Shown: positions 41,480-61,224 of the stretch, piece by piece
How the letters are laid out: each line of letters starts with the position of its first letter
How positions within the stretch are numbered: position 1 is the stretch's first letter
Origin: an uncultured bacterium
GTDB taxonomy: Bacteria; Muiribacteriota; Ozemobacteria; Ozemobacterales; Ozemobacteraceae
Assembly (NCBI GenBank): GCA_964472075.1
Contig: CAYYIY010000001.1
Coordinates: forward strand, 150,670-214,669
Direction: 5' to 3'
DNA: 64,000 bases
The notes under the pieces: model-generated
Database searches by the model: none
Told to the model about the DNA's origin: nothing
Seen by the model: the letters and a program-made list of their open reading frames with translations, nothing else
Position numbers and translations under genes: made by a program

Positions 41480-41758
41480 CTAGCGTCTGACCGTGAAGTT
41501 TCTCGATGAGAGCTTTTCACAGCTATCATCAAGCAGAATCTGCATGTCATCCACCCGCGAAAAGCGAGGGCCGCGGCGCAGCTCCTCGAGAAATTCCGTT
41601 ATCAACGACTCGGGTCCTTCCGCATACGCCTGCACGGAACCATCATCGAGATTTTCCACCCAGCCGACCAGGCCGCGCTGCTCAGCCTGACGCACGGTAA
41701 AGTAGCGAAAGCCCACGCCCTGCACCATTCCACGCACGATAACTTGTACTTTTCTCAT
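41480..41758 (-). CDS. acyP: Acylphosphatase
   Basis: VRGMVQGVGFRYFT...GWVENLDDGSVQAYAEG matches acylphosphatase signatures. Length is 92 aa. Confidence 0.85.
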   Translation of the reverse strand: MRKVQVIVRGMVQGVGFRYFTVRQAEQRGLVGWVENLDDGSVQAYAEGPESLITEFLEELRRGPRFSRVDDMQILLDDSCEKLSSRNFTVRR

Positions 41759-41792: not shown

Positions 41793-42530
41793 CTAGAGAC
41801 GCCGAACACGATACTCAGCGAACATCGCGCATGCCGCCGTCAGCCGCGAGGCATGACGTTCTGCCCGCATCAGGGGTTCAAACCATGACGGCGGCAGAAA
41901 CTCTCGATGCGAGAATCCGCCGGAACACGCATACGAAAGCGGCATCAATCGTTCCACCCGTTCGACACGCAGCGCCGGAAACTCAGCCTGCAGAAGCGTT
42001 CGGTCGCGGTGAAACAGCAGATAAGCCAACGCTCCGTTCGCCCCCGAAAGCGGTCCGGTAGAGGCAAACTCCCATCTCCGCGTATGCGGACGAAACGGCT
42101 CGTGGTGCAAAAAAGAGTAAATGAACCTTGACCAGAGCGAGTTCCAGGGTTCGATCAGGTGTAACACTCCACCCGGTCTCAGGCAGCGAACGACTTCACG
42201 CAGGAATACGCGCGGCCGCGAGAGATGATGCAGCACGTTCAAACCGACGATCGCCTTGAGCGAGCCGGTCTGAAACGGCAACCCCTGGGTCGCGTGCAGA
42301 CGAACGTCGATCGAGTCGAGATCAAGCAGATCGGATCTCACCACGTCAGGCAGCAGCTCCTCAAGAAACCCGCCACCCGAGCCGACTTCGAGCACCGCCC
42401 CCGCGCCTTCCGGTATGCCGGTGAGCAAACGCCGATACCAGTCCGTGTAGATGCTCTTCAGCACCGGTCGCTGCCGAAACAGCATGCGGCGCAGGCGGGT
42501 CACGGAGGGTTGATCAAGTTCGCGGCACAT
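41793..42530 (-). CDS. Class I SAM-dependent methyltransferase
   Basis: VLEVGSGGGFL ... VGLNVLHHL ... LRPGGVL motifs. Start was placed at an internal ATG to avoid overlap with divergent wzm. Confidence 0.65.
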   Translation of the reverse strand: MCRELDQPSVTRLRRMLFRQRPVLKSIYTDWYRRLLTGIPEGAGAVLEVGSGGGFLEELLPDVVRSDLLDLDSIDVRLHATQGLPFQTGSLKAIVGLNVLHHLSRPRVFLREVVRCLRPGGVLHLIEPWNSLWSRFIYSFLHHEPFRPHTRRWEFASTGPLSGANGALAYLLFHRDRTLLQAEFPALRVERVERLMPLSYACSGGFSHREFLPPSWFEPLMRAERHASRLTAACAMFAEYRVRRL

Positions 42531-42605
42531 ACCGATACTATACCATCGGTCGCCAATCGATCGCTCGGCATTGCAGCCGCAGGCAGGCTGCCATACAATA
42601 CGCGC

Positions 42606-43394
42606 ATGTTCACCCCGTTGCTGCAGCACCGACACCTCACCTGGGAACTGGCCAAGCGAGAGTTTCAAGATCGCTTTATCGGTCACATTCTCGGCTGGGT
42701 CTGGGTTGTGCTGCAGCCAGTGTTGTTCATGAGCATACAGATTTTCGTGTTTGCCTGTATCTTTCGCGTTTCACTTGCCGCTTATCCGCATCTTCCCTAT
42801 ACCTATGCCACCTATGTTCTCGCCGGCATGATTCCCTGGTATTACACCCAGGAACTGCTGATGAAATCCTGTCAGGCCGTCTCGAGCCAGGCCGGCCTCG
42901 TCAAGCAGGTGGTGTTTCCGATCGAGGTGCTACCGCTGAAAACCGTGGTCGCCACTTTACTGCCACAGCTCATCGCCATCGGTCTCTTCATGCTGTATAC
43001 CCTGGTGACCTTCGGCGCTCTTTCCTGGACTTATCTGCTGCTGCCTCCGACCGTGCTTCTTCAGAGCCTCTTTCTGTCGGGAATCGCGTGCCTGCTTTCC
43101 GCGATCGGCGTATATGTTCGCGATATACGTGACATCATCCAATCGATGCTGATGGCGGCTCTCTATCTGCTTCCCGTTTTTTATCTTCCCGACATGGTTC
43201 CCGGCATTTTTCGCTACGTTCTCTGGCTCAACCCGTTCAGCTATATGGTCTGGGTGTATCAGGACATCCTGTATTTCGGCTCAATCGCACACCCCGAGGC
43301 ATGGCTGGTGTTCATCATCGAATCTTTCGTCTCGTTCGCCGTTGGTTCCCGGGTGTTTCACAAACTGAAAATCATGTTCGGCAGCCATCTGTAA
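42606..43394 (+). CDS. ABC-2 type polysaccharide export permease (Wzm/TagG-like)
   Basis: Six TM helices and an ABC-2 family pattern. Start is at MFTPLLQHRHL. Confidence 0.8.
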   Translation: MFTPLLQHRHLTWELAKREFQDRFIGHILGWVWVVLQPVLFMSIQIFVFACIFRVSLAAYPHLPYTYATYVLAGMIPWYYTQELLMKSCQAVSSQAGLVKQVVFPIEVLPLKTVVATLLPQLIAIGLFMLYTLVTFGALSWTYLLLPPTVLLQSLFLSGIACLLSAIGVYVRDIRDIIQSMLMAALYLLPVFYLPDMVPGIFRYVLWLNPFSYMVWVYQDILYFGSIAHPEAWLVFIIESFVSFAVGSRVFHKLKIMFGSHL

Positions 43395-44791
43395 TGAGCA
43401 CCGTTCCCATACAGGTTTCCAGCCTCGGAAAGCAGTATCGTCTGTACGAGCATCCATGGGAAATGCTCTCGGAACTGTTGTTCGGCAAAGGCAACGCCCG
43501 CGATTTCTGGGCCTTGCGCGATGTCACTTTTGAGGTACAAGCCGGCGAGGTTTTCGGTATTATCGGTCGCAATGGCGCAGGCAAGAGCACACTTCTGCGT
43601 ATTCTCGCCGGTACTCTCGACCGAACCACCGGAGAGGTCAACGTGTCCGGAAGAGTTTCGGCCATTCTCGAACTGGGCACCGGGTTCCAACCAGACTACA
43701 CCGGGCGTGACAATATTCGCATCGGCGGAATGTGCCTCGGCATGAGTCGCCGAGAGGTTGACGACAAACTTGAATCGATCATCGAGTTCAGTGAATTGCG
43801 TGAATTCATCGATCAACCGTTCCGCACCTATTCTTCCGGCATGCAGGCGCGCCTGACGTTTGCCACGGCCATCAGCGTCATTCCGGACATTCTCATCATC
43901 GACGAAGCGCTCTCTGTCGGAGATGCGCGATTCGCCCGCAAATGTTATGAACACCTCCAGGAGCTGAAGCGACAGAAACGCACGATCCTGATGGTCAGTC
44001 ATGACATGAACTCAATCAACACCTTCTGTGATCGCGCCCTGTTGCTCGAACAGGGAAGAGTGCTCGCCATCGGCGACCCGCGCGATGTCACACACCAGTA
44101 TTACGGCCTGCTCTTCGGCCCGGAATCGTCTGAGACATCTGCGCAAGCGACTCCCACTGTCGACCCGTTACCCGTGTCCTTAACTCACGACGTATCCGAC
44201 CCTCCCGTCGAAGCGCTTCGACCCGGAATACACCAGTCTTCTCGCTGGCTTCCCGAAAATATCCGCACACCAGAGAACTCGGACGAATGGATCGCCGCGG
44301 CGCGACGGCATCTTCAGCTCGAAGCGCGAGCACTGCCCGCTCGTGGATTCGTCGTCGGCGGTGGAGAGGTGCATATTCTCGATGCCGGGGTTCTCGACCT
44401 GCAGGGACAACTCCTTCATTCGCTTCATTCCGGCCAGGATTGTCTGCTCTATTTTCGCGCCATCTTTCTTCAGACTCTGCCGAGAGTCAATGCCGGAATT
44501 GTCCTGCGCAGCACTCGCGGCGTTGATCTGTTCGGCGTGACGAACGAGACGATGGGTTGGGACATTCACGATGTTCCGGAAGGCGCCATCGTCGAGTGCC
44601 GCGCCCGGGTTCGCATGTGGCTGACCAACGGAACCTACTTTCTGACCGTCGGGATCAGTCGCGCTCCCGGGCCGCAATGTGAACTGATCTATGACGCGTA
44701 TGCTTTTGATGTTCTGCCAACCCCCGGCATCTTCACGACATCACTTGTCGACCTGTGCGCACAGTTCGAGGTTGAGGTGCATCGACCATGA
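43394..44791 (+). CDS. ABC transporter ATPase with C-terminal extension (Wzt-like)
   Basis: Walker A GRNGAGKST, signature YSSGMQARL, Walker B ILIIDEALSVGD. A ~200-aa C-terminal domain beyond the NBD resembles O-antigen-terminus-binding Wzt proteins. The ATG overlaps the wzm stop. Confidence 0.8.
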   Translation: MSTVPIQVSSLGKQYRLYEHPWEMLSELLFGKGNARDFWALRDVTFEVQAGEVFGIIGRNGAGKSTLLRILAGTLDRTTGEVNVSGRVSAILELGTGFQPDYTGRDNIRIGGMCLGMSRREVDDKLESIIEFSELREFIDQPFRTYSSGMQARLTFATAISVIPDILIIDEALSVGDARFARKCYEHLQELKRQKRTILMVSHDMNSINTFCDRALLLEQGRVLAIGDPRDVTHQYYGLLFGPESSETSAQATPTVDPLPVSLTHDVSDPPVEALRPGIHQSSRWLPENIRTPENSDEWIAAARRHLQLEARALPARGFVVGGGEVHILDAGVLDLQGQLLHSLHSGQDCLLYFRAIFLQTLPRVNAGIVLRSTRGVDLFGVTNETMGWDIHDVPEGAIVECRARVRMWLTNGTYFLTVGISRAPGPQCELIYDAYAFDVLPTPGIFTTSLVDLCAQFEVEVHRP

Positions 44792-45828
44792 CCGCCTTGC
44801 CTTTCAACGGCGTGTCCGAGTCACGCAACCGAGCGGAACGGATGTTCGAGTCGGTTCCCTGCCCGTTATGCGGCCGGTCAGAAGCGCGACGATTGTTCCG
44901 CCGCCCTGATCACACCTATGAAATGTCCGAGTTTTCCTTTCCCGTAGTGCGCTGCCGATCCTGTTCGATGGTGTATGTGAATCCACGGCCGAAACCGGGA
45001 TATCTCTCTCTGTTCTATCCCAGGGAATTTTTCGGCGTGCAACGGCATCCGCGCGATGTTCTTATCGATCAGTCCGAGTCCATGCAACAGAAATGGCAGT
45101 TGCTGAAGGATCTTCCGCCGGGACGCATTCTTGATATCGGATGTCAGAAGGGGGAGTTTCTCTATTTCATGCAGTGTCGCGGCTGGCGGGGGCAAGGCAT
45201 CGAAATCTCCCCACTGTCGCCCAATCTGTTCAGGCAGGATATTCACTACGGACCTCTCGCTACGGCACCGCTGGAAACCGGGTCCTTCGACGCCGTCACG
45301 TTGTGGGCCGTTCTCGAGCATCTTCTCGAACCTCAGGAAATGCTGCAACGAATTCAACCCCTGCTGAAGCCGAACGGGCGTCTGATTGTCCTGGTCACCA
45401 ACATCTGTAGTTTGCCCGGGCGCTGGATGCGCCACGACGATATTCCGAGGCATCTGTTGCTTTTCTCCCCCCAGACGCTGAAATCCATGCTCGAACGATG
45501 CGGGTGGCAGGTGCAGCGGGTCCACTGCAACCACGTGTTGTTCGGCGGCCGGCATCGCGGCCTGTTCACGTATCTGCTCAAGTGGCTGGCCGGGGAATCC
45601 TTCGCGGACATCGTCGCCCAGAATCGAACCCCTGAGCGCTGGCTCGAGTTCACCACCCTCTTGCACGGCAAACCTTCGCGTCTGGTCGAGTGGGTGGAAT
45701 CCTGGGACAAGAAGCTCACCCCATGGCTGGACCAGCTGATGGACCGCCTCGGCTTCGGCTTCACGCTGATTGCCACCGCGACACCCCAATCGACAGAACG
45801 AATGATCTGTCACGGGAGAATTCGCTGA
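44788..45828 (+). CDS. Class I SAM-dependent methyltransferase with N-terminal CxxC...CxxC zinc ribbon
   Basis: CPLCG...CRSC, then RILDIGCQKGEFL ... TLWAVLEHL ... KPNGRLIV. Overlaps wzt by 4 nt. Confidence 0.7.
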   Translation: MTALPFNGVSESRNRAERMFESVPCPLCGRSEARRLFRRPDHTYEMSEFSFPVVRCRSCSMVYVNPRPKPGYLSLFYPREFFGVQRHPRDVLIDQSESMQQKWQLLKDLPPGRILDIGCQKGEFLYFMQCRGWRGQGIEISPLSPNLFRQDIHYGPLATAPLETGSFDAVTLWAVLEHLLEPQEMLQRIQPLLKPNGRLIVLVTNICSLPGRWMRHDDIPRHLLLFSPQTLKSMLERCGWQVQRVHCNHVLFGGRHRGLFTYLLKWLAGESFADIVAQNRTPERWLEFTTLLHGKPSRLVEWVESWDKKLTPWLDQLMDRLGFGFTLIATATPQSTERMICHGRIR

Positions 45829-47795
45829 TGTGCGGCATCTGCGGCTGGGTCAACACGGATCAGGCACAGCCGGCTCCTGTTGAGGTGCTCCGTCGCATGC
45901 TGGGTCGCCTCCGGCACCGCGGCCCGGCCTCGGGCGGCCTCTGGAAAGCGAAGCACGTGGCTCTGGGTCATGCCCGGCTGCCGATCATCGATCTGAGCTC
46001 GCAGGCCGCGCAGCCTATCGTGAGCGAAGACGGCAACTGCGTTCTCGTCTGCAACGGCGAGATCTACAACTTCGAGGATCTGCGCATCGATCTCGAGAAG
46101 CGCGGCCATCAGTTTCGGTCTCGATCCGATTCCGAAGTCATCCTGCATCTGTGGGAAGAAAAAGGTGAGAGTTGTGTTCATGATCTGATCGGCATGTTCG
46201 CGTTCGCCATCTGGGACGAACGCCGGGAGATGCTGTTTCTCGCCCGCGACCGATTCGGCAAGAAACCCCTGGTCTACGCGCGGTATCCGGATCACTTTGT
46301 CTTCGGTTCGGAGATCAAGGCTCTTCAGTGTGACCCAGGGTTTCGTCCGGCGGTCAGCGAGCGCGGTCTGTATCTGTATCTGGCCTACCAGTCGGTGCCG
46401 GCACCCTACTCGGCGTTCGATCGCGTCGAGAAGCTGCCGCCCGCCCATTGTCTGACGGTTCGCCGGGGACGGTGTGATCTGCGCGAATACTGGCGCCTGA
46501 GCCATGAACCGCGATTTTCCGATGCTCCCGAGCCGCCGGCCGCGATCGTCGCCGAACTGCAGGAGCGTCTGAAGCAGTCGGTGAAACGTCGCATTCGCGC
46601 CGACGTACCGGTCGGAGCCATGCTGTCGGGGGGAATCGACTCATCGCTGGTCGTGTCGATCATCGCCAGGCAGACCGATCAACCGCTGTCGACGTTCACC
46701 GTCGGGTTTCCGATCGCCGAGTATGACGAGCGCCCCTGGGCTCGAGAAGTCGCCGGCCAATTACACACCAATCATTTCGAGTTACTGGCCGGCCCTGAAA
46801 TCATCGATCTTCTTCCAGACATTGTCTGGTACTATAACGAACCGTTCGCCGACTCATCAGCCCTGCCGACCTGGCTTGTCTGTCGCCTGGCGCGTCAGCA
46901 CGTTACGGTGGCCCTTTCCGGAGACGGCGGCGACGAGTGTTTTGCCGGATACCCGCGCTACCAGAACATCGGTGAGCACGCGCTCGATCAGGGGTTTCCA
47001 TCAATCTGGGAGCGCTGGCACCGGCGTTTTCGTGACTGGCGGGGATTCGTCACCGGGCGTTCGTGGACCGCCGACCTGCGCCGCCTGGCGGATCTGCGGC
47101 AGGACCGACTGCTCTACTACTACCGACTGGCTCACTTCCACGAGGGATACCAGACCCGCCTTCTGACTCCCGAGTTCCGCCGCCGTCTGGGCGATCTGGT
47201 TGCGGTCGATCATCTGCTCGAGCGCTTCCGACGCAGTCGAGCGCCGACCTTTCTCGACACGCTCACTGAGATCGATCTGGGGTTGTACCTGCCCGACACC
47301 CTGATGACCAAGACGGACGTTGCCTCGATGGCGCATGCGCTCGAGGTTCGGTCTCCCTTTCTCGACCATACTCTGGTCGAGTTCTGCGCCCGATTTCCGT
47401 CTCACTGGAAGCTGAAGGACGGGTGCCAGGGCAAGTGGATTCTGCGTTGCGCCGCCGCTGATCTGTTGCCAGAGTCGATACTGAATCGAAAAAAGATGGG
47501 GTTCGGCATTCCGATGGACCACTGGTTCAGAAAGGAATGGCGGGACGTCGCTCATGACGCCCTGCTTTCCGGCCGCCTGATCGCACGCGGCTACTTCGAA
47601 CCCACCTATCTAAGATCACTCTTCGAGAGGCACCAACAGGGCGAAAGCTGGCAGTATCTGATCTGGAATCTCATCATGTTCGAGCATTGGCACCGTCGAT
47701 TCATCGATGGAGACGCCCCGCCGATGCCCGAACCGGAACTCACAATAACCGAAGTGAAAAGTGACCGCAGAGAATCCGGAGATCCTCCCCACTGA
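45828..47795 (+). CDS. Asparagine synthase (glutamine-hydrolysing) family amidotransferase
   Basis: N-terminal MCGICGW Ntn-Cys, NGEIYN and SGGIDSS PP-loop motif. Length is 655 aa. The ATG overlaps the upstream stop. Confidence 0.8.
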   Translation: MCGICGWVNTDQAQPAPVEVLRRMLGRLRHRGPASGGLWKAKHVALGHARLPIIDLSSQAAQPIVSEDGNCVLVCNGEIYNFEDLRIDLEKRGHQFRSRSDSEVILHLWEEKGESCVHDLIGMFAFAIWDERREMLFLARDRFGKKPLVYARYPDHFVFGSEIKALQCDPGFRPAVSERGLYLYLAYQSVPAPYSAFDRVEKLPPAHCLTVRRGRCDLREYWRLSHEPRFSDAPEPPAAIVAELQERLKQSVKRRIRADVPVGAMLSGGIDSSLVVSIIARQTDQPLSTFTVGFPIAEYDERPWAREVAGQLHTNHFELLAGPEIIDLLPDIVWYYNEPFADSSALPTWLVCRLARQHVTVALSGDGGDECFAGYPRYQNIGEHALDQGFPSIWERWHRRFRDWRGFVTGRSWTADLRRLADLRQDRLLYYYRLAHFHEGYQTRLLTPEFRRRLGDLVAVDHLLERFRRSRAPTFLDTLTEIDLGLYLPDTLMTKTDVASMAHALEVRSPFLDHTLVEFCARFPSHWKLKDGCQGKWILRCAAADLLPESILNRKKMGFGIPMDHWFRKEWRDVAHDALLSGRLIARGYFEPTYLRSLFERHQQGESWQYLIWNLIMFEHWHRRFIDGDAPPMPEPELTITEVKSDRRESGDPPH

Positions 47796-50288: not shown

Positions 50289-50325
50289 CACCCTGGGCCT
50301 GCCTGCGCCGTTTCTCACGCCTTTC

Positions 50326-53442: not shown

Positions 53443-55487
53443 GCGCGACGTTGCAGAAGTGTTGCAGGAACGCGGATCATGTCGACCTCAGGCCAAACCT
53501 GCACAGTATAACGACGACCGTTGCGATTCGGATCCGTGTTGTCTGAGGTCGAGAAGAACAATCGCTCGTTCCAGTGCGAAAATCGTCCGAGTCCCTGCTG
53601 CATGATATCTTGATGTACAGCGTGTGCGACACCGATCGCTCGTCCGTTTTCGAAAATCTGTAATCTCGATTGAAACGGGGCGGCCATCGAGTCACCCGAC
53701 GTCGGCAACCTGGGCAGACCGGTCACCCAGCAATGTCCGTGCTCCTGTGAGAACGGTGCCGCGAGCGTCCAGGTCGAAAGCCCCGGATCCGTCGTGAGTT
53801 CATTCGCGAACAACCTGATGCTCAGCCGCATCTCGTGACAGCCGGCAGACGACGGCAACAGGCGCGGCGGCGCAAGAAACGCCTGTTGCAGCAGATTTCG
53901 CAGATCAGCGGTCAAAACCCAATAGAGCCGACCCTCGCCGGCAGTCGCCCGCGAGAGCGGAATCGCGAGCATCTGCTCTCCGGGGGTTTTCAATGGCAGA
54001 TAAGCAACCGGCTCGGCTTCGCGCAAGAGTACCAGACCGGGTTCCGCCAGCAGAGAAAGTAATTGTTCAGGGTCTTCGCACTGAACCAGCAAAGGAACCG
54101 TCTGCGCATATTCGCTCTCTGCCTGAGTCAACAATTGTCCTATATGCTTGATCATGAAACGAGGATCAATACGCCGAACCGCCGGCACTCGTTCGTTCAC
54201 CGCACGCTCGGCAATCTGTCCGGCGCACGCGAGCGCTTCGCGCCATCCACGCGTCTCGTCGGCGAAGTGCGAAAACAGATTGATCTGTTCGGTTGGCGGA
54301 TACACGGTCACCGGGCTCCAGTTCACGGAAAGGTCCAGGTCCAGAGCCTGCTGCAGATTGTCAGGCAGTTCGCGAACGGTCGATTTCATGACCAGCGCTC
54401 CCACGGACAGACGCCGATGCGGCAGGCGCTGGCGTCTCTGCAGTGCTTGAAGGGTCTCGAGAACCTGATCGAGTTCCGCTCCTCGTCTCAGTCGGGCGTA
54501 TGTTCGCGGCTGAAAACTGTCGACCGAGATCGAGATGTTCCAGCGTGAAAACTTCTCGAGCCAATCGCGCTCGCGCTCGCGAATCAAGACCCCGTTCGAG
54601 GTGAACCCGAAGGTGAGATTCGGATTGTCGTCAGGCCGAAACCGTTCGACGAACCCAATGAACTCTGGATCAACCCAGGGTTCACCGCCATTCCAGGTGA
54701 GATGCAGTAACGTAGGAATCAGCGCCAGTATCTGTTTGCCAAGTCCGGGAACCGCTCTTTGAGAGTTCCAGCGCGCATAGTTCTGACTGCACATCGGACA
54801 GTGCAGGTTGCACTCGAGCGATGATACCCAGGCCAGGTGCGAAGGCAACCCGTCCACCGAGGTTTTCCCTTGCCGCCAGGCTGATTCGAGTTTCGCAAGG
54901 TTCACTGATGAAGCGTGACTCGGATCGCCGCGGTCGAGCACGAACGTGCGCCCGGAGACCGGCAGTGAGACGACATACTTTCGACGATTGGTCAACGGAC
55001 TGGTACCGTCTGAGGTCGAGAAGAACAGAGCCCCCGTATCACTCAGATAGAAAGCCCCGCCGTCACGTCTGATCGCTTCGATACTCTGGAGTCCGGGGCC
55101 AAGTGCTCTATCATCCTCAATCAATACAGCTTTCGACAGATCGGTTTCATCAATTTCGAAAGGTTCAGGAAGCTGGTGGAAATAGCAGTGCCCCCCGTGA
55201 TGCCGCCACCCTGCCAGACCCTCGAACGGAGGCGGTTCGCCGCCGCTCCATTGCGTCGACAGGCAGGTTGCGCATGGGTATCCGGCGAGCCGTCCGTGCG
55301 CCAGATCCTCACGCAACCGGTGCCAGGGTTCACCGTTCCAGATCTCGGCCAGAGATGCCTCTCGCGCTTGACCGAGCGGAAGAGCGTCTCCACCATAACC
55401 GCGCCAGAAGCAGCAGGGGCTGACTTCTCCGGAGAGGTCGATCACCATCTGCTGCCATGGATATGCGCATCTGGGTTGCTTGACCAT
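53439..55487 (-). CDS. Radical SAM enzyme with N-terminal SPASM/twitch-like Cys module and two copies of the unclassified domain
   Basis: ECNLHCPMC (CxxxCxxC) and WNGGEPWVD (GGEP) radical SAM core. The N-terminus VSPCCFWRGYGGDALPLGQAREASLAEIWNGEPWHRLRE...PCATC resembles the C-terminal half of SPASM domains. ATGA overlap with the downstream gene. The track ORF begins with TTG at 55715, and the internal ATG was preferred. Confidence 0.65.
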   Translation of the reverse strand: MVKQPRCAYPWQQMVIDLSGEVSPCCFWRGYGGDALPLGQAREASLAEIWNGEPWHRLREDLAHGRLAGYPCATCLSTQWSGGEPPPFEGLAGWRHHGGHCYFHQLPEPFEIDETDLSKAVLIEDDRALGPGLQSIEAIRRDGGAFYLSDTGALFFSTSDGTSPLTNRRKYVVSLPVSGRTFVLDRGDPSHASSVNLAKLESAWRQGKTSVDGLPSHLAWVSSLECNLHCPMCSQNYARWNSQRAVPGLGKQILALIPTLLHLTWNGGEPWVDPEFIGFVERFRPDDNPNLTFGFTSNGVLIRERERDWLEKFSRWNISISVDSFQPRTYARLRRGAELDQVLETLQALQRRQRLPHRRLSVGALVMKSTVRELPDNLQQALDLDLSVNWSPVTVYPPTEQINLFSHFADETRGWREALACAGQIAERAVNERVPAVRRIDPRFMIKHIGQLLTQAESEYAQTVPLLVQCEDPEQLLSLLAEPGLVLLREAEPVAYLPLKTPGEQMLAIPLSRATAGEGRLYWVLTADLRNLLQQAFLAPPRLLPSSAGCHEMRLSIRLFANELTTDPGLSTWTLAAPFSQEHGHCWVTGLPRLPTSGDSMAAPFQSRLQIFENGRAIGVAHAVHQDIMQQGLGRFSHWNERLFFSTSDNTDPNRNGRRYTVQVWPEVDMIRVPATLLQRRA

Positions 55488-55518
55488 GGCTGTTTCGAAA
55501 AGTGACCTGCCCTGTCTT

Positions 55519-57471
55519 TCAGGGTCGCGACAGTGGCAACGACGGTCCTTCCCAGAAGCGGCCGATGTCTCGCTGGTACAAAGAGAGAATGATGCGACGG
55601 GAACCCCCGCGAGCGTGCAGCAGACGCAACAACGCGTAGGTGTCCTGCCGCAGGCGCGGTCCGCTGCAGGCCTGCTGCAGTTGTTGCTCAAGTTTTTCGA
55701 CCATCGGCGGCTCAACTTTGCCGCTCGCCATGGCGATGAAACGTCGCAGGTTCAGTCGATCGGAACTCAGATGCAGGATCGTATCGACCAGCCCCTGAAA
55801 TCGTCCGAGCAGATCGAGATCCGGACCCTCGATCAGATGAGGGCGAGGCCAGGTCAGATTGCCGAAATGAGCGGAAATGAAGACGGTAAACTGCTGCGGG
55901 ATCGCCTGCTGACGCAGCTGGCCCAGATACTCAACGGTCAGATCGTCCGGGTTCATCGACTCGATGAATACGACCTTTCCAGCAGGACCGGGCGGTAGAA
56001 GTTTGAGTAACTCAACGATGTCGTCAGGGACGGTGAGTCGCACGGCACGATCACTGCCGCGCACATAGAGCGAATCGGGAAACACGCCGCAGGTCGTTTC
56101 GAGCGTCTGTTGCCACTTCTGACGAGCCGCCTGAGCTTCCGCCCCGTTGCCGACCGTGCGCATGATGTTTTCCGCCGTCGATTGTCGAGTGACCCAGGCG
56201 GTGGCCCGCAAAGTCAGCTCGGCCATTGTGTGTTCACGTGACAGGTACAATACCGGAAGACGACCAGCAGTCTGCAAGGCAAAAGCCTGCATCCAGGCCG
56301 CTTTTCCTTCTTCGCGACCCCCGACGATCAGGTGCAGGCCGCGCTGCACAAACCCACCACCTAAAGCTTTGCCGAGTTCGACGCCGGGGGCAACCACCAC
56401 GGAAGCATGTGACGGCAGTCCGGAAACGAGTTCGGGCGCTTCGAGTTTCAGGGGACGGAACTGTCGAATTTCGCGCGTCGACAGGGTGGGTAGGGGCGCG
56501 GCCGGCTGAGACAAAGGAGCCGCTGTCGAAGGAAGAGAAGCCGGAGTTGCCACGGGGGCCGGTGCTGAAGCTCGCGTTTCTCCCACGCTTGCCGCCAGAC
56601 CGGCAAACACTTCCTTCAGTTTCTGAACCGGCTCTTTGGTGGATTCGAGAAACTTGATCCAGGTGCGAACTTCCTTGAGACACTCGTCCAGAGTTCTCTT
56701 TTTGCCGCAGTAATCGGAGAAAGCGGCGGGGCCATAGGCAAAATGGGACTGGCTGACCCCCACTTTCGGGCGGTGCAGCCCAGGGTGAATACTCCCCGGC
56801 ACGAGAACGGGAGTTGTCGCACTCGCCATCTCAGGCAGGATGGTTCGGTCCGTGGTTTTCATCAGGCGGCGATCACCACGTTTGATGCCGGCGATGCGCC
56901 CGATCAACGCCCGATACATGCGTCCGAGTTGCCGATGCCCGCCGCAGCCGAACACACCCGGGTGAATCTCGATCGCAATTTCATCGGGCGTGGCCAGCAG
57001 GAACATGGCATCGTTACTGATGCCGAGCGTTTTCAGACTTTCGATGAATCGGGTCGTATCGTCGTAGACTGCCTGAAATCCGAAGACTTCCTGATTCGGA
57101 CGATAAGGCCTGCCGTCGACCACCACATGAGTGTGTTCCCTGGCAAGCAGCTGCAGAAGCTCATCCTGACCCGGCAGTTCCGGTACTCTTTTCCCCTCGA
57201 CTTCGAGATGGATCTGCAGCCCTTCATAGCCGCATTCCTCGAGTAACAGATCAGAGGCGCGACGAATCGCATGCACCACGGTCATCGGCCCGGAAAGGAC
57301 GATGCTTTCTTCGTTGAAAGCCTGTTGCAGCTGTTCCGCATTTTCGGTTTCCTCGAAAAAGTAGGCGGAACGGTACAAGCCCTCAGGAACGGCTTTCAGC
57401 GCATCGCTCAGCCCTTTCAGGGGTTTGATGCCCGAAGCAACTCCCGACGCGGAAAGTATCAGCGCATTCAT
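55519..57471 (-). CDS. Hypothetical protein with C-terminal RecA/KaiC-superfamily domain (degenerate Walker A)
   Basis: The C-terminal GLHLIVGGREEGKAAWMQAFALQ...LYLSREHTMAELTLR resembles KaiC/DnaB-C/RadA folds, but Walker A is GGREEGKA. There is a Pro/Ala-rich linker, and the N-terminal ~270 aa are unrecognised. Confidence 0.45.
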   Translation of the reverse strand: MNALILSASGVASGIKPLKGLSDALKAVPEGLYRSAYFFEETENAEQLQQAFNEESIVLSGPMTVVHAIRRASDLLLEECGYEGLQIHLEVEGKRVPELPGQDELLQLLAREHTHVVVDGRPYRPNQEVFGFQAVYDDTTRFIESLKTLGISNDAMFLLATPDEIAIEIHPGVFGCGGHRQLGRMYRALIGRIAGIKRGDRRLMKTTDRTILPEMASATTPVLVPGSIHPGLHRPKVGVSQSHFAYGPAAFSDYCGKKRTLDECLKEVRTWIKFLESTKEPVQKLKEVFAGLAASVGETRASAPAPVATPASLPSTAAPLSQPAAPLPTLSTREIRQFRPLKLEAPELVSGLPSHASVVVAPGVELGKALGGGFVQRGLHLIVGGREEGKAAWMQAFALQTAGRLPVLYLSREHTMAELTLRATAWVTRQSTAENIMRTVGNGAEAQAARQKWQQTLETTCGVFPDSLYVRGSDRAVRLTVPDDIVELLKLLPPGPAGKVVFIESMNPDDLTVEYLGQLRQQAIPQQFTVFISAHFGNLTWPRPHLIEGPDLDLLGRFQGLVDTILHLSSDRLNLRRFIAMASGKVEPPMVEKLEQQLQQACSGPRLRQDTYALLRLLHARGGSRRIILSLYQRDIGRFWEGPSLPLSRP

Positions 57472-57481
57472 GATTCACCTC

Positions 57482-58930
57482 TCAGCGAAGTTCTCCCAGC
57501 TGCAAAGCCGCTGCTATGCGACGAGGAATGTCACTCAGGTTCATGACGCCCTGAAACAGCGTCTGATGAGTCCCCATCGCGTGCAGGAACATGTCTTCAC
57601 ACCCGTGACCGTTTGTCGCCATCTCGTGCAGCGACTTGCCGGTATCGAGAAACGAGATACCCAGCTTGCCCCAGACGAGATCGCCGAGACGCATTTCGAA
57701 TTCCTCGCCCGCAGGTACAAGTTTCAGTGAAGCAATTTCAGCATCAGAAAAGGTAAGAGATGGATACGATTTTTTCAGTTCATCCGCGAGACTCGCGGGA
57801 TCGGCGGCGATGCGACGTGCCAGCATTTTGGTCGACACCGCCGACTTGCGAAACGTATCTTCCTGAAATCGCTCGGTCATGTGCAGACCGCCGGTCGAGT
57901 GGTCGGGCACCATGACGAGAAGCGTATCCGGATGCGTGCGCACGAATTCCTGCAATACCCGAACCGTGGCATCCATTTCGCGAATCTGCTCGACCAGCTC
58001 CGCAGCATCGTGAGCATGGGAGAGGGCGTCAATCTGGCCGGCTTCGACCATCAGCAGAAAACCCTTCGGATGCGCGGACAGGATTTTCAATGCTGACGCC
58101 GTCATCTCAGGAAGATCAGGCGTTGATTTGCAGTCAGGTTCGAACGTGAACGGCATGAACGAATCAGAAAACACCGCGAACACTTTCTCAACCTTGTCGG
58201 TCAGGGCCTGCACCAGATCCTGGCGTGACTGCACGACACGATACCCCTGCTGCTGCACGTCCGCGAGCAGATTCCGTCCTTTCGGCTGTTTGCCTCCCTG
58301 TTCGACGCTCTGAAACCAGGCGCGGCCACCGCTCATCAGCAGATCGATACCCGAAAACACGATCTGCTCAGCCAGCTTTGCCTCTTCATCGCGGTGATTC
58401 ACGTGACCGGCAAAGGCGGCCGGGGTCGCATGCGTCAACCGAGTGTCCGAGATGATCCCCGTCTTCATGCCCTTGTTCCGGGCCAGATCCATGATCGTGA
58501 TCAACTGATTGCCGGCGGCATCAACTGATACCTTGTTGAACAGGCCGATCTTTCCCGTAGCCAGCGTCGAAGCCGCCGCGGCCGAATCATTCACGGTCGA
58601 GTCGGCCGCAAAGCCGATGACCCGGCCGACAATGGGAAAACGATCGGTCTCGAGTTTTCCCTGGCGACCGACGATCGCGTCACGAGACAACCGCAGGGCA
58701 GGAGCGCCCAGTCCGTCGGCAATCAGCAGAATCGCATTGCGAGCCGGACGCGCCAAGACCTTGAGCCGGCGCTGCAGGGCCTCATCAAGCGTGATCGGCT
58801 TTGAATCAACCGGAGTGATCAAATCGTTCGCCGGAGGTTTTGCCGGGGTAACGACCGGGGTTTCCTGGGCTGCAAGCATTGCACAGCCCGCCATAATCAA
58901 CAGCACAGTCAGCAGGAGTCGACGCATCAT
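57482..58930 (-). CDS. Alkaline phosphatase (PhoA family), secreted
   Basis: Signal peptide MMRRLLLTVLLIMAGCAMLAA. LLIADGLG and DSAAAASTLATGKIG match the PhoA active-site Ser region. C-terminal HDAAE and PDHSTGG motifs. Confidence 0.75.
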   Translation of the reverse strand: MMRRLLLTVLLIMAGCAMLAAQETPVVTPAKPPANDLITPVDSKPITLDEALQRRLKVLARPARNAILLIADGLGAPALRLSRDAIVGRQGKLETDRFPIVGRVIGFAADSTVNDSAAAASTLATGKIGLFNKVSVDAAGNQLITIMDLARNKGMKTGIISDTRLTHATPAAFAGHVNHRDEEAKLAEQIVFSGIDLLMSGGRAWFQSVEQGGKQPKGRNLLADVQQQGYRVVQSRQDLVQALTDKVEKVFAVFSDSFMPFTFEPDCKSTPDLPEMTASALKILSAHPKGFLLMVEAGQIDALSHAHDAAELVEQIREMDATVRVLQEFVRTHPDTLLVMVPDHSTGGLHMTERFQEDTFRKSAVSTKMLARRIAADPASLADELKKSYPSLTFSDAEIASLKLVPAGEEFEMRLGDLVWGKLGISFLDTGKSLHEMATNGHGCEDMFLHAMGTHQTLFQGVMNLSDIPRRIAAALQLGELR

Positions 58931-58995
58931 TCCATCCTCCTCGGGTGTATGCCTGATTCTAGCACACCCCCTCCGCTCTTGTATCTTCGTGTGTT

Positions 58996-61224
58996 CTATC
59001 GCCGGTCCTCGGCTTGCGGTGACGGCAGACCACGGGGTTCGTCGAAGCGTGCCAGACCGCATGGTCCTTCAGAAGCAATCCCGTACTCGTCACCGCGTCG
59101 ATACAAAAGCACCGGTTGATACTCGGAAAATGCCTGCTTCAACAGAGCATTCGGACCATCGCCCAGATCAAGAGCCAGAATTCGACTGCCGGTGCCGAGA
59201 AACGGGTGATTCAGGCGCACGACTTCCATGCCGTTGATGGAAAACTCCTCAGGCCGACGGTATCGCGCCTGCTGCTCCGCCTCGTCAAGCACGGCAGCCA
59301 CCAGCCCTTCGGGCGCATCTTGGGGCAACCGGCGCAGCTGATCGAGAAGCGCATCATAGTCGACGGCATCGGTACTCACCGCACGCTGCATGAGGGGTGC
59401 GGAAACCCGCAAGGCACGCAGCTGCCTGAGCACATCCAGCCGAATACGCGCAGGGTGTCTGAGAAACACCAGCGATTGATTCGGTACCAACCGTTCGATA
59501 ACCGACGCCAGATCAGAGCGGATATGCCAGTAATCGCGTGCCAGCAGCGACCACCAGGCGTGAACCATCACGAAGAGTCCGATGGCCGCAATAAGACCCT
59601 GTGCGCGCCGCCCGGCATTCGGCCAGAGTTGATCGAGCAGGCGCAGCACGCGAGCGCCCCCCCATGCCGCCGCAGGCAACAGCGGAAACAGATAACGCGG
59701 TCCGTAGCAGAAATCCTGAAAATAGTACCAGCTGTAGCCGACGATAACCAGGATTGAATGCAGCACAAAGAATAAGTCGATGATCGTCTCGGTATTTGAA
59801 ACAGCCTCTCGCCGCTTCAGCAGGGCGAACCCCGTCCAGCCGGCCAGGCCGCCGCCAAACGCCCAGGCCGAAAAGCCGAGAAGGTTGTCGATGTTGTTCG
59901 ACCACAGCAGCCCGGGTGACAACTGAGCCAGCACCGACGCCGACACCTGTACGTGCCGAACAGCCAGCAAAGGGTCGCCGGCAATCAATTGAGCCCACTG
60001 TGATTGAGCCAGTACGGCGGGAATAACACTGCCGAGCAGCAGTCCACCCCAGATCGCCCGCCTGGCAAAAGTTGCCGGAATCAGGAACGCGGAGATAAAC
60101 AGAGACAACATCAGAGCCGCTCCCTCGACACGGCGGGTCAGCAACAGCAAGGCAATCGCCACCATGGCACCGGCAAGACCGCGGTTTCTTCCCTGCGTCA
60201 GATCGGCCAGACCGTTCACGCCGATCAACAGGCAGAGAAGTCCGAGTGAATGATTCATCTGCGATGCGCTCATCAGCAGCAGAAATGGCGAGCAAGCAAA
60301 AAGAGAGATTCCGTAGATCTCTGTCTCACGCGCCTGGGCCGTTCGAAACAGCCGAACAAAGAGCAACAGGCACAGGACACCAAGCATCGGGTTCAGCAAA
60401 GTGTCCAGGTTGACTTTCATCAATGCAGCCTTCAAAAAAGCATAAGCAGGCTGGTAGGTTGAATAGATCCAGGAACCGTTTTCATCGATGGATGGATCGG
60501 GCAGGAACGATTCGCGTATCGGCAGCGGCGGCGTATGCGCACGGCCGAGCAACAGCAGACGAGCCTGCCAGTGCTGAATGATCTCATCCTGCACGCGCGG
60601 AATACCACCCAACAGCAGCTGTTGCCCCACGACGCCGCAGCTCAGAATCAGCACGGCGAACCCCAGCAACCGCGACCGAGACAGGAGCGGCAAGTCAGGT
60701 GACGACTGTTGGGAAGCCGCGGCATCTGCCGGACGGCACGACATGACACAGCGCCGAAACCAGATCAGAGACGCGAAGGTTCTCGCCCAGTCAAGCCCGA
60801 GCAGCAGCAAGGCTGATGTCTGTTCAGGTTGAATGCAGGTATACCCGCTGTTCGTATCCATCAGGCGTTGCGGCACCAATGCCAACAGAATCAGCCACCA
60901 GAAACGATTTCCGAGATGGTGTCGAAGAGAGCCGAGAATCTCCTTCCACTGCGCCTTTTCTTCAACGGTTCCGATCGCACGGATAACGGTGAGTGCCAGA
61001 AACAGCAGCACGACCAATGACCACAGCGAGTCGTCCATGCCCGCATAGGCCACGGCATCGGTAAGACGCGCTTCCCATCGGATGGCGTCCGACTGCAGCA
61101 AAGCCGTGCCGACATGAGACAGCAGCAGAAGCAGCGTATCGACGATGATCAGCGGCACAGGCGAACTCTCGGTTGAAAGCTTGAGGAACAGAGATATCGG
61201 GGCATCATGGTATAACCTCGGCAA
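58996..61224 (-). CDS. Large polytopic membrane protein, GT-C-like (possible lipid-linked-sugar-dependent glycosyltransferase or polymerase)
   Basis: 742 aa with more than 12 hydrophobic helices and a soluble C-terminal ~180 aa. No sharp motif. It is the first gene of the minus-strand glycan operon. Confidence 0.4.
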   Translation of the reverse strand: MPRLYHDAPISLFLKLSTESSPVPLIIVDTLLLLLSHVGTALLQSDAIRWEARLTDAVAYAGMDDSLWSLVVLLFLALTVIRAIGTVEEKAQWKEILGSLRHHLGNRFWWLILLALVPQRLMDTNSGYTCIQPEQTSALLLLGLDWARTFASLIWFRRCVMSCRPADAAASQQSSPDLPLLSRSRLLGFAVLILSCGVVGQQLLLGGIPRVQDEIIQHWQARLLLLGRAHTPPLPIRESFLPDPSIDENGSWIYSTYQPAYAFLKAALMKVNLDTLLNPMLGVLCLLLFVRLFRTAQARETEIYGISLFACSPFLLLMSASQMNHSLGLLCLLIGVNGLADLTQGRNRGLAGAMVAIALLLLTRRVEGAALMLSLFISAFLIPATFARRAIWGGLLLGSVIPAVLAQSQWAQLIAGDPLLAVRHVQVSASVLAQLSPGLLWSNNIDNLLGFSAWAFGGGLAGWTGFALLKRREAVSNTETIIDLFFVLHSILVIVGYSWYYFQDFCYGPRYLFPLLPAAAWGGARVLRLLDQLWPNAGRRAQGLIAAIGLFVMVHAWWSLLARDYWHIRSDLASVIERLVPNQSLVFLRHPARIRLDVLRQLRALRVSAPLMQRAVSTDAVDYDALLDQLRRLPQDAPEGLVAAVLDEAEQQARYRRPEEFSINGMEVVRLNHPFLGTGSRILALDLGDGPNALLKQAFSEYQPVLLYRRGDEYGIASEGPCGLARFDEPRGLPSPQAEDRR

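Follow-up and report, generated by a model that had tools for sequence, protein, structure and literature searches.

Positions 41793-55487 of the window (the whole 64-kb stretch of DNA analyzed) probably form a nine-gene, 13.7-kb island for glycan tailoring and export, which was inserted between the P650 and acylphosphatase genes and would work by the mechanism proposed at the end of this text (Table 1). The first-pass annotation had drawn a single unit of ~19 kb; its listed genes are real and most of its family calls hold, but the unit was drawn wrongly, 55519-61224 being conserved backbone and 41793-55487 the insertion.

Table 1 Features of the island and of the gene row around it
Feature	Position	Strand	Evidence
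HEAT_2 gene	41189-41455
Acylphosphatase (backbone marker, outside island)	41480-41758	-	PF00708 E = 6e-25
MT245, class I SAM methyltransferase	41793-42530	-	Pfam Methyltransf_11/23
Wzm, ABC-2 permease	42606-43394	+	PF01061 (ABC2_membrane) E = 2e-10; Wzm/RfbD NCBIfam match
Wzt, ABC ATPase with C-terminal CBM	43394-44791	+	PF00005 (ABC_tran) E = 2e-22; PF14524
Wzt, CBM	about 44357-44755
MT346, Zn-ribbon and class I methyltransferase	44788-45828	+	Methyltransf_23 E = 1.4e-21; N-terminal CxxC...CxxC
AsnB-family glutamine amidotransferase, N-terminal Cys2	45828-47795	+	Asn_synthase E = 3e-104; GATase_7
MT473: shared domain, hydrophobic segment, class I methyltransferase	47740-49161	-
MT473, shared domain	48754-49047
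GT4 glycosyltransferase	49158-50288	-	Glyco_trans_1_4 E = 4e-32; Glyco_transf_4 E = 7e-26
P1038, 1038-aa membrane protein with TM helix	50326-53442	-
P1038, C-terminal orphan region (~390 aa)	50329-51492
P1038, GT-C-fold membrane core	about 51493-52731
P1038, shared domain	53038-53334
Radical SAM enzyme	53439-55487	-	PF13186 E = 7e-13; PF04055 E = 2.5e-11
Radical SAM, shared-domain copy 2	53478-53777
Radical SAM, core with CX3CX2C	about 54432-54815
Radical SAM, shared-domain copy 1	54948-55232
Radical SAM, N-terminal twitch/SPASM	55263-55469
P650, 650-aa DnaB_C/KaiC-like ATPase (backbone)	55519-57471	-	orthologs in relatives
PhoA (backbone)	57482-58930	-	orthologs in relatives
P742, 742-aa membrane protein (backbone)	58996-61224	-	orthologs in relatives

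Limits of the island

The gene row carrying the insertion is kept across Riflebacteria, as judged by synteny with five informative relatives (L002, L003, L004, L024, and L025). The acylphosphatase gene directly follows the P650 gene in all five, and in four it is succeeded by a HEAT_2 gene of opposite orientation; the typical order is membrane protein, PhoA, DnaB/KaiC-like ATPase, acylphosphatase, and HEAT protein, gapless and, in each of the five, with no glycan genes inserted. In the window, P650 is separated by 13.7 kb from the acylphosphatase (37-43% identical to those of L002, L003, and L004; tblastn) and HEAT_2 genes, and 41793-55487 was therefore read as an insertion, with P742, PhoA, and P650 as backbone. 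Orthologs of these three (30-48% identity) keep their order in L002, L004, L023, L024, and L025, and L003 has PhoA with no P742 ortholog immediately upstream. The relatives' P742-PhoA-P650-acylphosphatase module sits in unrelated surroundings; in L003, its PhoA-P650-acylphosphatase part adjoins lipid A and core genes. No repeats, tRNA, integrase, or att-like repeats were found at the island flanks, and the island does not deviate in composition (GC 0.589 vs. 0.577 for the rest). Synteny is the one line of evidence from which the insertion is deduced, and loss in all relatives would be its formal alternative.

It seems quite improbable that the whole stretch 41793-61224 works as a single glycan locus made up of two convergent operons, in which PhoA, the KaiC-like protein, and P742 help to make the glycan and the methyltransferase encoded after wzt is a WbdD-like terminator read by the Wzt CBM. 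Tight same-strand spacing (65 nt between P742 and PhoA, 10 nt between PhoA and P650, 31 nt between P650 and the radical SAM gene) makes read-through transcription plausible, and, as the radical SAM gene lies so close behind P650, island and backbone genes may share a transcript; a functional link between them is also conceivable. The lipid A and core genes beside the L003 module, the Wzt_C domain described below, and two weak matches of P742, one to the P1038 GT-C family (hhalign E = 1.7e-4, probability 50%) and one to a family of putative glycosyltransferases from Leptospira (NCBIfam, 31.9 bits vs. a cut-off of 200), also speak for a single locus. However, the backbone module is kept in five relatives with no adjacent tailoring or export genes (and in L003 without P742 immediately upstream), in other phyla the island genes are found with none of PhoA, P650, and P742 beside them, and MT346 does not resemble WbdD (see below). 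All three backbone proteins (PhoA, P650, and P742), earlier counted as locus members, belong in relatives to a separate conserved module with acylphosphatase. Two labels given to them are weakly backed: "KaiC-like" for P650 (KaiC E = 0.0078, and weak DnaB_C matches in orthologs) and "GT-C-like" for P742, for which the evidence is the two matches above.

Exporter and methyltransferases

The Wzm/Wzt ABC-transporter-dependent glycan system that had been proposed is supported, as Wzm, Wzt, and Wzt_C were all detected. The C-terminal extension of Wzt, which had been expected to be a glycan-binding fold, is indeed a carbohydrate-binding module: it matches Wzt_C (PF14524) well above threshold (77.6 bits vs. 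a cut-off of 30.4, E = 1.2e-21); the top PDB match of Wzt is Aquifex WzmWzt (8dku, E = 1e-74), and the C-terminal region alone has the E. coli O9a Wzt CBM (2r5o) as its sole PDB sequence match. Wzm genes 29-38% identical to that of the island adjoin radical SAM homologs in L014-L022. The annotated gene overlaps are also real, with plus-strand junctions TAATG, ATGA, and TGATG (1, 4, and 1 nt) and minus-strand ATGA overlaps for radical SAM/P1038 and GT4/MT473. The 3′ ends of MT473 and asnB overlap by 56 nt.

In characterized systems, the CBM reads a terminal moiety and export is confined to terminated chains, and a coiled coil is described as consistently present in terminators (PMC11231755). 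The WbdD-like role suggested for the methyltransferase encoded after wzt was not borne out, as MT346 has no kinase domain and no coiled coil, and WbdD structures are absent from its PDB matches. The best of these matches is a putative methyltransferase (3cc8), followed by TcaB9 (residues 29-255, E = 6e-7), which is the best one covering the Zn-ribbon. TcaB9 is a nucleotide-sugar C-methyltransferase. In no island protein does a stretch free of Pro and Gly exceed 44 aa, and the island therefore encodes no coiled-coil ruler. MT245, the left-most island gene, is divergent from wzm, and 34 nt separate it from the acylphosphatase gene of the backbone, which lies downstream; the MT245 homolog in L017 (35% identical) adjoins a P1038-like gene and a radical SAM gene. 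For the methyltransferase part of MT473, L011, L015, L020, L021, and L022 contain counterparts of 34-45% identity.

A tailoring and export cassette

The GT4 enzyme is the single soluble glycosyltransferase of the locus, and no initiating transferase, polymerizing GTs, nucleotide-sugar genes, or GtrA/GtrB-like donor-synthesis genes were found in the 64-kb window. What had been described as a glycan assembly and export locus is therefore better regarded as a tailoring/export cassette than as a complete assembly locus, and the full pathway cannot be rebuilt from the sequence of the window alone. AsnB scores above the cut-off of the asparagine synthase model TIGR01536 (479 bits). It also matches the XrtA/PEP-CTERM EPS amidotransferase TIGR03108 over its full length, with the N-terminal catalytic Cys, but below the cut-off (586 bits vs. 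817) and with no XrtA/PEP-CTERM context. AsnB-type amidotransferases of polysaccharide loci include WbpS of P. aeruginosa.

The radical SAM enzyme, which had been placed outside textbook O-antigen pathways, proved to form the conserved core of a cassette that recurs. Its best NCBIfam match is NF033640 (N_Twi_rSAM), with which it shares the order of N-terminal SPASM/twitch followed by a radical SAM core with CX3CX2C; it differs from that family in its score (98.9 bits, below the cut-off of 170) and in a ~95-aa domain between twitch and core, which is present in all 13 of its homologs (32-42% identity, several phyla). The window enzyme has a second copy of this domain at its C terminus. A matching cassette, comprising an N-terminal-twitch radical SAM enzyme, AsnB amidotransferase, Wzm/Wzt, methyltransferases, and GT4, recurs in Nitrospira, Planctomycetota, and Pseudomonadota. 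An AsnB gene lies within 10 kb of the radical SAM homolog in nine of the 13 loci, Wzm and/or Wzt in eight, and both in seven; MT473-like and GT4 genes are present in several of the loci as well. Because it recurs in this way across phyla, the enzyme is a hallmark of the cassette and not an oddity. In Methyloversatilis sp. XJ19-13, the operon reads AsnB, methyltransferase, radical SAM, GT4, Wzm, Wzt (with Wzt_C), sulfotransferase, DegT, radical SAM, methyltransferase, and WbqC. This strain is cultured. The locus of P0006, a P1038-like protein, reads Ugd, epimerase, GT2, P0006, AsnB, Wzm, Wzt (with Wzt_C), methyltransferase, GT4, and methyltransferase. Classic O-antigen genes (DegT, WbqC, sulfotransferase, and Ugd) thus lie amid related cassettes.

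SPASM/twitch radical SAM and AsnB-like (lasso cyclase) enzymes are common in RiPP pathways, and AsnB reaches 290 bits with the lasso cyclase model, so that radical SAM/twitch, AsnB-like, methyltransferase, and ABC-2 exporter proteins might together mature and export a peptide. This is highly improbable: the scores of AsnB are far higher for the EPS amidotransferase and asparagine synthase models, Wzt carries a carbohydrate-binding module, the island encodes GT4 and GT-C enzymes, related cassettes contain the O-antigen genes listed above, and no protease was seen.

The label "transglutaminase-like" for P1038 had as its sole basis a sub-threshold arylamine N-acetyltransferase match (E = 0.0032) in a region at pLDDT < 50; the protein instead has a GT-C-fold glycosyltransferase core, which matches no Pfam or NCBIfam GT-C family. 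P1038 might catalyze the last transfer, with a protein or lipid as acceptor, like PglB, PMT, and ArnT, and not be a side-chain glycosyltransferase, in which case the product would be a protein/S-layer glycan or glycolipid and not LPS O-antigen. S-layer glycan pathways dependent on ABC transporters are known, and the 64-kb window contains no WaaL ligase or O-antigen initiation genes. We nevertheless consider such a product unlikely, as the acceptor of P1038 cannot be told from its fold alone, the typical O-antigen genes WbqC, DegT, and Ugd occur in related cassettes, and enzymes for lipid A and core are encoded in Riflebacteria relatives.

A shared domain in three island enzymes

The ~95-aa domain is a β-sandwich (AF2 model, pLDDT 93) with four copies in three island enzymes (two in the radical SAM enzyme, one each in MT473 and P1038), and these are all the copies in the window. 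It is new here: no Pfam-A or NCBIfam model matched it, and it is widespread (4530 cluster representatives at E ≤ 1e-3). D79 and Y90 are invariant across phyla, and E43, H55, G62, G64, S67, W69, F75, S76, P83, N86, and R88 are at least 90% conserved. Among 65 proteins sampled, the fusion partners were radical SAM/SPASM, GT1/GT4, GT2, SGNH, methyltransferases (TylF and others), Acyl_transf_3, sulfotransferase, pectate lyase, and β-helix; most are glycan-modifying enzymes. These partners, together with weak fold neighbors, suggest that the domain binds glycans.

A role as a protein-protein docking or oligomerization module, with tailoring enzymes held in a complex (e.g., mutually or with Wzm/Wzt), or as a small metal- or ligand-binding catalytic unit, is conceivable but rather doubtful. 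It is conserved more strongly than is usual for a carbohydrate-binding module, it occurs in both cytoplasmic (radical SAM) and secreted enzymes (the pectate lyase fusion P0005), and none of the solved CBMs matches it significantly, Foldseek against PDB returning nothing. On the other hand, its tandem arrays of two to six copies in secreted proteins, and its fusions to polysaccharide-acting lyases, esterases, and transferases, are typical of substrate-binding modules. CBMs and accessory β-sandwich domains of glycoside hydrolases (GH120 XylC, 3vst; BT_1002, 5mqp) are at most 10% identical to it; unlike them, it is not represented in Pfam and is also found on radical SAM enzymes of the cytoplasm.

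Relation to known systems and proposed mechanism

The island shares with CBM-Wzt O-antigen pathways (E. coli O9a/O8, K. pneumoniae O3/O5/O12/O4/O7, and Aquifex aeolicus WzmWzt) the Wzm permease, the Wzt ATPase with its C-terminal Wzt_C module, and tightly coupled wzm-wzt followed by a methyltransferase gene. Unlike them, it has no WbdD/WbbB-type coiled-coil terminator and no polymerase-type multi-GT protein, and it adds the N-terminal-twitch radical SAM enzyme, the AsnB amidotransferase, the GT-C enzyme, and the shared unannotated domain. A second point of comparison is the periplasmic modification of O-antigen after export by GT-C enzymes such as GtrC-type side-chain glucosyltransferases, GmlC of K. 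pneumoniae O2, and ArnT. P1038 differs from all three in its extra N-terminal TM helix and β-sandwich domain and its orphan C-terminal region; unlike in Gtr-type systems, no GtrA flippase or GtrB polyprenyl-phosphate-sugar synthase was identified in the island (outside it, the scan covered ORFs of at least 200 aa, above the size of GtrA).

We propose that, at the cytoplasmic face, the island GT4 and transferases encoded elsewhere would build a polyprenyl-diphosphate-linked glycan. Tailoring would follow in the cytoplasm: AsnB would probably turn a uronic-acid carboxylate into an amide, and a UDP-glucose dehydrogenase in related loci could supply the uronic acid; up to three SAM methyltransferases would add methyl groups, and the radical SAM enzyme would carry out a radical reaction on a sugar. 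The Wzt CBM, by analogy with characterized systems, would recognize a feature of the finished chain for export by Wzm/Wzt, and in the periplasm P1038, given its GT-C fold, would add a residue from a polyprenyl-phosphate-sugar donor. The shared domain, which in P1038 and MT473 was assigned manually to a side of the membrane, most likely tethers the radical SAM enzyme, MT473, and P1038 to the same glycan.

Results

An island probably inserted into a lineage-specific module

We built gene models from an ORF listing, inspection of start codons, and scans with Pfam and NCBIfam (see the table). The gene inventory of the first-pass annotation was essentially right, and the overlaps between adjacent genes were as it gave them (junctions TAATG, ATGA, TGATG, ATGA, and ATGA). 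The same annotation had read a span of 19 kb as one convergent locus for glycan assembly and export, and on this point the relatives of the organism were informative.

Features of the locus. Genes are given in window coordinates, domains in residues of the protein named; MT245, MT346, and MT473 are methyltransferases, and P650, P742, and P1038 are proteins named by their length in amino acids.
Feature	Position	Strand	Match or remark
HEAT_2 protein	41189-41455	+	tblastn; Pfam E = 4e-7
Acylphosphatase	41480-41758	-	tblastn; Pfam E = 6e-25
MT245	41793-42530	-	
Wzm	42606-43394	+	ABC2_membrane
Wzt	43394-44791	+	ABC_tran and Wzt_C
MT346	44788-45828	+	N-terminal CxxC...CxxC and Methyltransf_23
AsnB-family amidotransferase	45828-47795	+	
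MT473	47740-49161	-	
GT4	49158-50288	-	
P1038	50326-53442	-	
Radical SAM enzyme	53439-55487	-	
P650	55519-57471	-	
PhoA	57482-58930	-	
P742	58996-61224	-	
Shared domain in MT473	residues 39-136		
Shared domain in P1038	residues 37-135		
Shared domain, copy 1 in radical SAM enzyme	residues 86-180		degenerate
Shared domain, copy 2 in radical SAM enzyme	residues 571-670		

Only 17 homologues of P650 were found, 38-47% identical over the full length, and all that carry a name belong to Riflebacteria/Ozemobacteraceae. We read the DNA around six orthologues (L002, L003, L004, L023, L024, and L025). L002, L004, L024, and L025 share a common row: a polytopic membrane protein of ~710-760 aa with no Pfam match, a secreted PhoA-family phosphatase, the P650 orthologue, an acylphosphatase of ~95 aa, and then, on the opposite strand, a gene for a small HEAT_2 protein. 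In L025 one extra gene, for a methyltransferase, separates PhoA from the membrane protein. The row in L003 consists of PhoA, P650, and the acylphosphatase, and the sequence of L023 stops just past P650. The surroundings of the row differ in every relative read, and no gene for a radical SAM enzyme, GT-C protein, GT4, methyltransferase, AsnB, or Wzm/Wzt lies between P650 and the acylphosphatase in any of them. When the relatives' neighbor genes were compared with the window by tblastn, P742, PhoA, and P650 were recovered at the expected places, together with the acylphosphatase and HEAT_2 genes. Nine genes of the window, MT245 through the radical SAM gene (41793-55487), thus occupy a site that in the relatives is a junction of 0-75 nt, which argues for an inserted island of ~13.7 kb. 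PhoA, P650, and P742 are not island genes; they are part of a separate, lineage-specific module, so that half of the proposed minus-strand operon is conserved backbone. The glycan locus itself is real, and its core is more coherent than had been thought, but it is smaller than claimed, its phosphatase, KaiC-like, and GT-C-like part being a different module.

We infer the insertion from synteny. As judged by a repeat search, the island is bounded by neither att-like direct repeats nor inverted repeats, and its GC and GC3 are no different from those of the rest of the window; the insertion is either old or from a similar genome. Because the radical SAM gene starts 31 nt after P650, cotranscription of island and backbone is possible. 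A scan for sigma-70 promoters and intrinsic terminators returned no more hits than expected from shuffled sequence and therefore gives no operon boundaries.

The genes asnB and MT473 converge and share their last 56 nt (47740-47795), and the two transcripts would be complementary across the overlap, which makes antisense interference possible. An overlap of the same length is present in a relative at least 90% identical (L005, 3613-3668). The divergent intergenic region between MT245 and wzm measures 75 nt (42531-42605) and contains an inverted repeat, ACCGAT-N8-ATCGGT, directly upstream of the MT245 start (42531-42550), and a second, GC-rich palindrome-like stretch, GCAGCC...GGCTGC; both could be operator sites.

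The remainder of the 64-kb window encodes signaling proteins, peptidases, a sugar importer, and a 5′-nucleotidase, with no further glycan genes. Directly past P742 is a gene for a predicted secreted protein of 219 aa without a family match (61249-61908, plus strand), adjoined by a gene for an AlkA-like DNA glycosylase (61909-62580). Three ORFs elsewhere have no Pfam match at E ≤ 1e-5: 1575-3356 (minus, 593 aa), 10115-12850 (minus, 911 aa), and 27112-29292 (plus, 726 aa). The 911-aa ORF is flanked by two GAF-SpoIIE phosphatase genes (8344-10113 and 12901-14445).

Among the backbone proteins, P650 orthologues are ~630-690 aa long, with a DnaB_C/KaiC-like C-terminal half and an N-terminal half without an assigned family. 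Profile matches are weak (P650: KaiC PF06745, E = 0.0078; RadA, E = 8.6e-4; orthologues: DnaB_C), a conserved G-x-R-E-[ES]-G-K-[AGSTF] stands in place of the Walker A motif in the 17 orthologues, and a PDB sequence search with P650 gave nothing useful. P742 scored 31.9 bits against NF047440, below the cut-off of 200, and aligned with the P1038 family in hhalign at a probability of 50% (E = 1.7e-4, 159 columns).

A recurrent cassette around a radical SAM enzyme

The radical SAM enzyme matches PF13186 at residues 7-75 (E = 7e-13) and PF04055 at residues 225-352, the CX3CX2C motif of the core (CNLHCPMC) following an N-terminal twitch/SPASM domain. The domain order is that of the N-terminal-twitch radical SAM family NF033640, but the score (98.9 bits) is below the cut-off of 170. 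The island AsnB passes TIGR01536 (asn_synth_AEB; 478.8 bits, cut-off 267.1) and falls below the cut-off of TIGR03108, the XrtA/PEP-CTERM amidotransferase family (585.6 bits, cut-off 816.9); no exosortase genes were found in the scanned ORFs of the window.

With the radical SAM protein as query against one genome per GTDB species, we obtained 13 homologous loci (32-42% identity) from Nitrospira, Planctomycetota, Alpha- and other Pseudomonadota, and the cultured Methyloversatilis sp. XJ19-13. By tblastn, AsnB lies within 10 kb of the radical SAM homologue in 9 of the 13, Wzm and/or Wzt are present in eight (both in seven), an MT473-type methyltransferase in five, and GT4 in most; in one locus (L017), a homologue of MT245 adjoins a P1038-like gene. 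The Methyloversatilis operon (NZ_JANINH010000004.1; L016, 7062-20569) is unmistakably an O-antigen-type cluster, with genes for AsnB, a methyltransferase, the N-twitch radical SAM enzyme, GT4, Wzm, and Wzt (Wzt_C, E = 7e-18), and after these for a sulfotransferase, a DegT aminotransferase, a second radical SAM/SPASM protein, Methyltransf_24, and WbqC. The radical SAM enzyme had been set aside as falling outside textbook O-antigen pathways; its recurrence with AsnB, Wzm/Wzt, and GT4 across phyla instead makes it a core component of a conserved cassette, whose carriers span at least four phyla and include a cultured strain of Methyloversatilis.

Related clusters were also met through P1038. That of the P1038-like protein P0006 has the order Ugd, epimerase, GT2, P0006, AsnB, Wzm, Wzt (with Wzt_C), methyltransferase, GT4, methyltransferase, and P0013, a relative of the P1038 core that lacks the domain described below, is accompanied by AsnB, GT4, a methyltransferase, and Ugd in a polysaccharide cluster from soil. 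The presence of Ugd in both would be consistent with a role of the AsnB enzyme in amidating a uronic acid. We also considered, and rejected, the possibility that the radical SAM, AsnB, and ABC-2 genes form a RiPP-type system.

Other peculiarities of these loci are extra stand-alone proteins with the shared domain in four cassettes (L011, L017, L020, and L022), three AsnB paralogues within 20 kb in L011, and an AsnB::GT4 fusion of 1318 aa at the P0006 locus.

A domain shared by three island enzymes

Reading of the translations revealed a motif common to MT473, P1038, and the radical SAM enzyme, L-x-L-F-E-x-G-x-x-L-G-x-x-H-S-x-H-x-x-I-x(3)-G-x-G-R-[YF]-S-H-W and, after a gap, F-S-[ST]-S-D-x-[ST]-D-P-x-x-N-G-R-x-Y. 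It marks a domain of ~95 aa, which matched no model in Pfam or NCBIfam and is absent from the window outside these four copies. A 50-sequence alignment (A1) was the basis of the structure and distribution analyses. The AlphaFold2 model is a small beta-sandwich (pLDDT 93.2, pTM 0.85), for which Foldseek returned no significant match in the PDB. Searched with the profile, 1.84 billion cluster representatives yielded 4,530 proteins at E ≤ 1e-3 (3,551 at E ≤ 1e-10), commonly with two to six copies. Scans of 65 carrier proteins gave no Pfam model for the domain itself, and a protein with six copies had zero Pfam matches. Fusion partners in these 65 were radical SAM plus SPASM (6), GT1/GT4 (3), SGNH/GDSL (3), Methyltransf_24 (3), TylF (2), and beta-helix (2), and further other methyltransferases, pectate lyase, Acyl_transf_3, GT2, and sulfotransferase. 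In each of the 13 radical SAM homologues, a copy of the domain follows the twitch domain and precedes the core.

The simplest reading is that the domain is a glycan-binding module for substrate recognition, by which different tailoring enzymes are directed to one polymer. The rival is a protein-docking or ligand-binding module, in favor of which are the very strong conservation of polar and aromatic residues across phyla and the presence of the domain on both sides of the membrane.

Within the radical SAM gene, the two copies have 20 nt in common, GTCTGAGGTCGAGAAGAACA (53541-53560 and 55008-55027); this stretch encodes the LFFSTSD motif of the domain and hints at internal duplication or gene conversion.

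P1038, a predicted GT-C protein

Pfam and NCBIfam recognize no family in P1038, and a PDB sequence search with it gave nothing useful. Our first search for its homologues was dominated by the shared domain, often in tandem copies. A local iterative search assigned residues ~200-655 to a family of membrane proteins, some of which carry N-terminal units of a TM segment and the shared domain and some of which do not. In an AlphaFold2 model built on 30 homologues (alignment A3), confidence is high for the N-terminal domain and for the membrane core (pLDDT 85-95) and low for the C-terminal part (about residues 650-1038; pLDDT < 50). The modeled core is a predicted GT-C membrane fold, and P1038 presumably acts at the periplasmic face with a polyprenyl-phosphate-sugar donor. 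D300, within a PxSDA motif, is invariant in the 30 homologues and lies N-terminal to the conserved core; judged from the alignment, it is a candidate for the conserved acidic residue in the first extracytoplasmic loop of GT-C enzymes (the catalytic Asp of ArnT and PglB). In P0006, whose sequence we read by hand, two TM segments with an Arg-rich loop separate the shared domain from the invariant-Asp loop, an arrangement that would place both on the same, periplasmic, side of the membrane.

P1038 had been described as transglutaminase-like. There was no Transglut_core match, and the only match bearing on that description, to the arylamine N-acetyltransferase family PF00797 at residues 879-940, was below its cut-off (17.7 vs. 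22.8 bits, E = 0.0032); this family consists of Cys-His-Asp enzymes of the papain/transglutaminase clan. The matched residues lie in a stretch, 718-1038, whose pLDDT in the AlphaFold2 model is below 50. The C-terminal ~390 aa (residues ~651-1038; window 50329-51492, minus strand) had no homologues beyond a partial C-terminal ORF in the near-identical relative (L005-L007), and searching for homologues with P1038 stripped of the N-terminal domain brought in just one further protein. The region contains a possible Cys...His...Asp arrangement (YCYQ, HWVAE, and FVDPS).

A CBM-bearing transporter and no coiled-coil terminator

Wzm passes PF01061 (40.9 bits, cut-off 26.9) and matches the Wzm/RfbD family of NCBIfam. 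The nucleotide-binding domain of Wzt matches PF00005 (E = 2e-22), and the best PDB matches of the protein are Aquifex Wzt (8dku and 7k2t, E = 1e-74). The C-terminal extension of Wzt had been proposed to be a glycan-binding fold, and at the family level it is: PF14524 (Wzt_C) is matched end to end (profile positions 6-143 of 143; 77.6 bits, cut-off 30.4; E = 1.2e-21). The only PDB sequence match of the isolated region was the carbohydrate-binding module (CBM) of E. coli O9a Wzt (2r5o), which was weak (E = 0.27). These matches support an island that works with a CBM-gated exporter.

In characterized systems the CBM of Wzt binds a terminal moiety, so that terminated chains only are exported, and the terminators consistently contain a coiled coil (PMC11231755). 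No such terminator (WbdD/WbbB type) was found in the island by a proxy test, the longest stretch free of Pro and Gly in its proteins being 44 aa and lying within the nucleotide-binding domain of Wzt. The methyltransferase directly after wzt, MT346, had been likened to WbdD. We rejected it as a WbdD-like terminator: Pfam and NCBIfam show no kinase domain, the proxy test shows no coiled coil, and WbdD is absent from its PDB matches at E ≤ 0.01, which comprise the putative methyltransferase 3cc8, TcaB9, and other generic methyltransferases. Of the matches that extend over the zinc ribbon, the best is TcaB9, a nucleotide-sugar C-methyltransferase (E = 6e-7). A PDB sequence search with MT473 gave nothing useful.

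Discussion

Assembly of O-antigen and capsule by ABC-transporter-dependent pathways is understood from a handful of enterobacterial prototypes. The cassette resembles the enterobacterial O-antigen systems in its CBM-bearing Wzt but differs from them in lacking a coiled-coil terminator. The export logic is of a known kind. What appears new, being unmatched in the libraries and papers searched, is the shared domain, the predicted GT-C enzyme with an N-terminal recognition module, and the combination of a twitch radical SAM enzyme, AsnB, and methyltransferases with a CBM-bearing Wzt in the absence of a coiled-coil terminator. No description of the cassette or of the shared domain was found in the literature searched on Wzt/O-antigen, twitch radical SAM, and Riflebacteria topics.

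We propose that a polyprenyl-linked glycan, the backbone of which would be made by genes elsewhere, receives methyl and amide groups and a radical modification while in the cytoplasm, that the CBM of Wzt would recognize it and Wzm/Wzt export it, and that P1038 may add further glycosylation in the periplasm. As a whole, this picture of an inserted cassette with glycan tailoring, CBM-read export, and periplasmic glycosylation is probable; any single chemical step is much less so. Besides a docking role for the shared domain and the RiPP-type reading, two other accounts differ from it. One keeps the 19-kb span as a single unit, against which stands the conserved backbone row of the Riflebacteria relatives; the other makes the product a non-LPS glycoconjugate with P1038 as final transferase.

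A bolder version, which we consider unlikely, is that the shared domain is a new and widespread recognition family that directs tailoring enzymes at either membrane face (radical SAM, methyltransferase, and GT-C) to one polyprenyl-linked glycan and marks an unrecognized class of ABC-transporter-dependent glycan pathways, in which the twitch radical SAM enzyme, AsnB, and a methyltransferase build a CBM-read cap that replaces the coiled-coil "molecular ruler" terminators.

The synteny result shows that an island can pass for part of a neighboring operon when a locus is read from its sequence alone. The cassette keeps the CBM-bearing transporter without a coiled-coil terminator and pairs it with a radical SAM enzyme and an amidotransferase, and the chemistry of its enzymes would extend the known modifications of glycans at the polymer or cap level. 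The shared domain, with ~4,500 clusters and a high-confidence model, offers a well-defined, inexpensive target for binding and structure work, and with it many large proteins now labeled "hypothetical" in polysaccharide loci could be better annotated.
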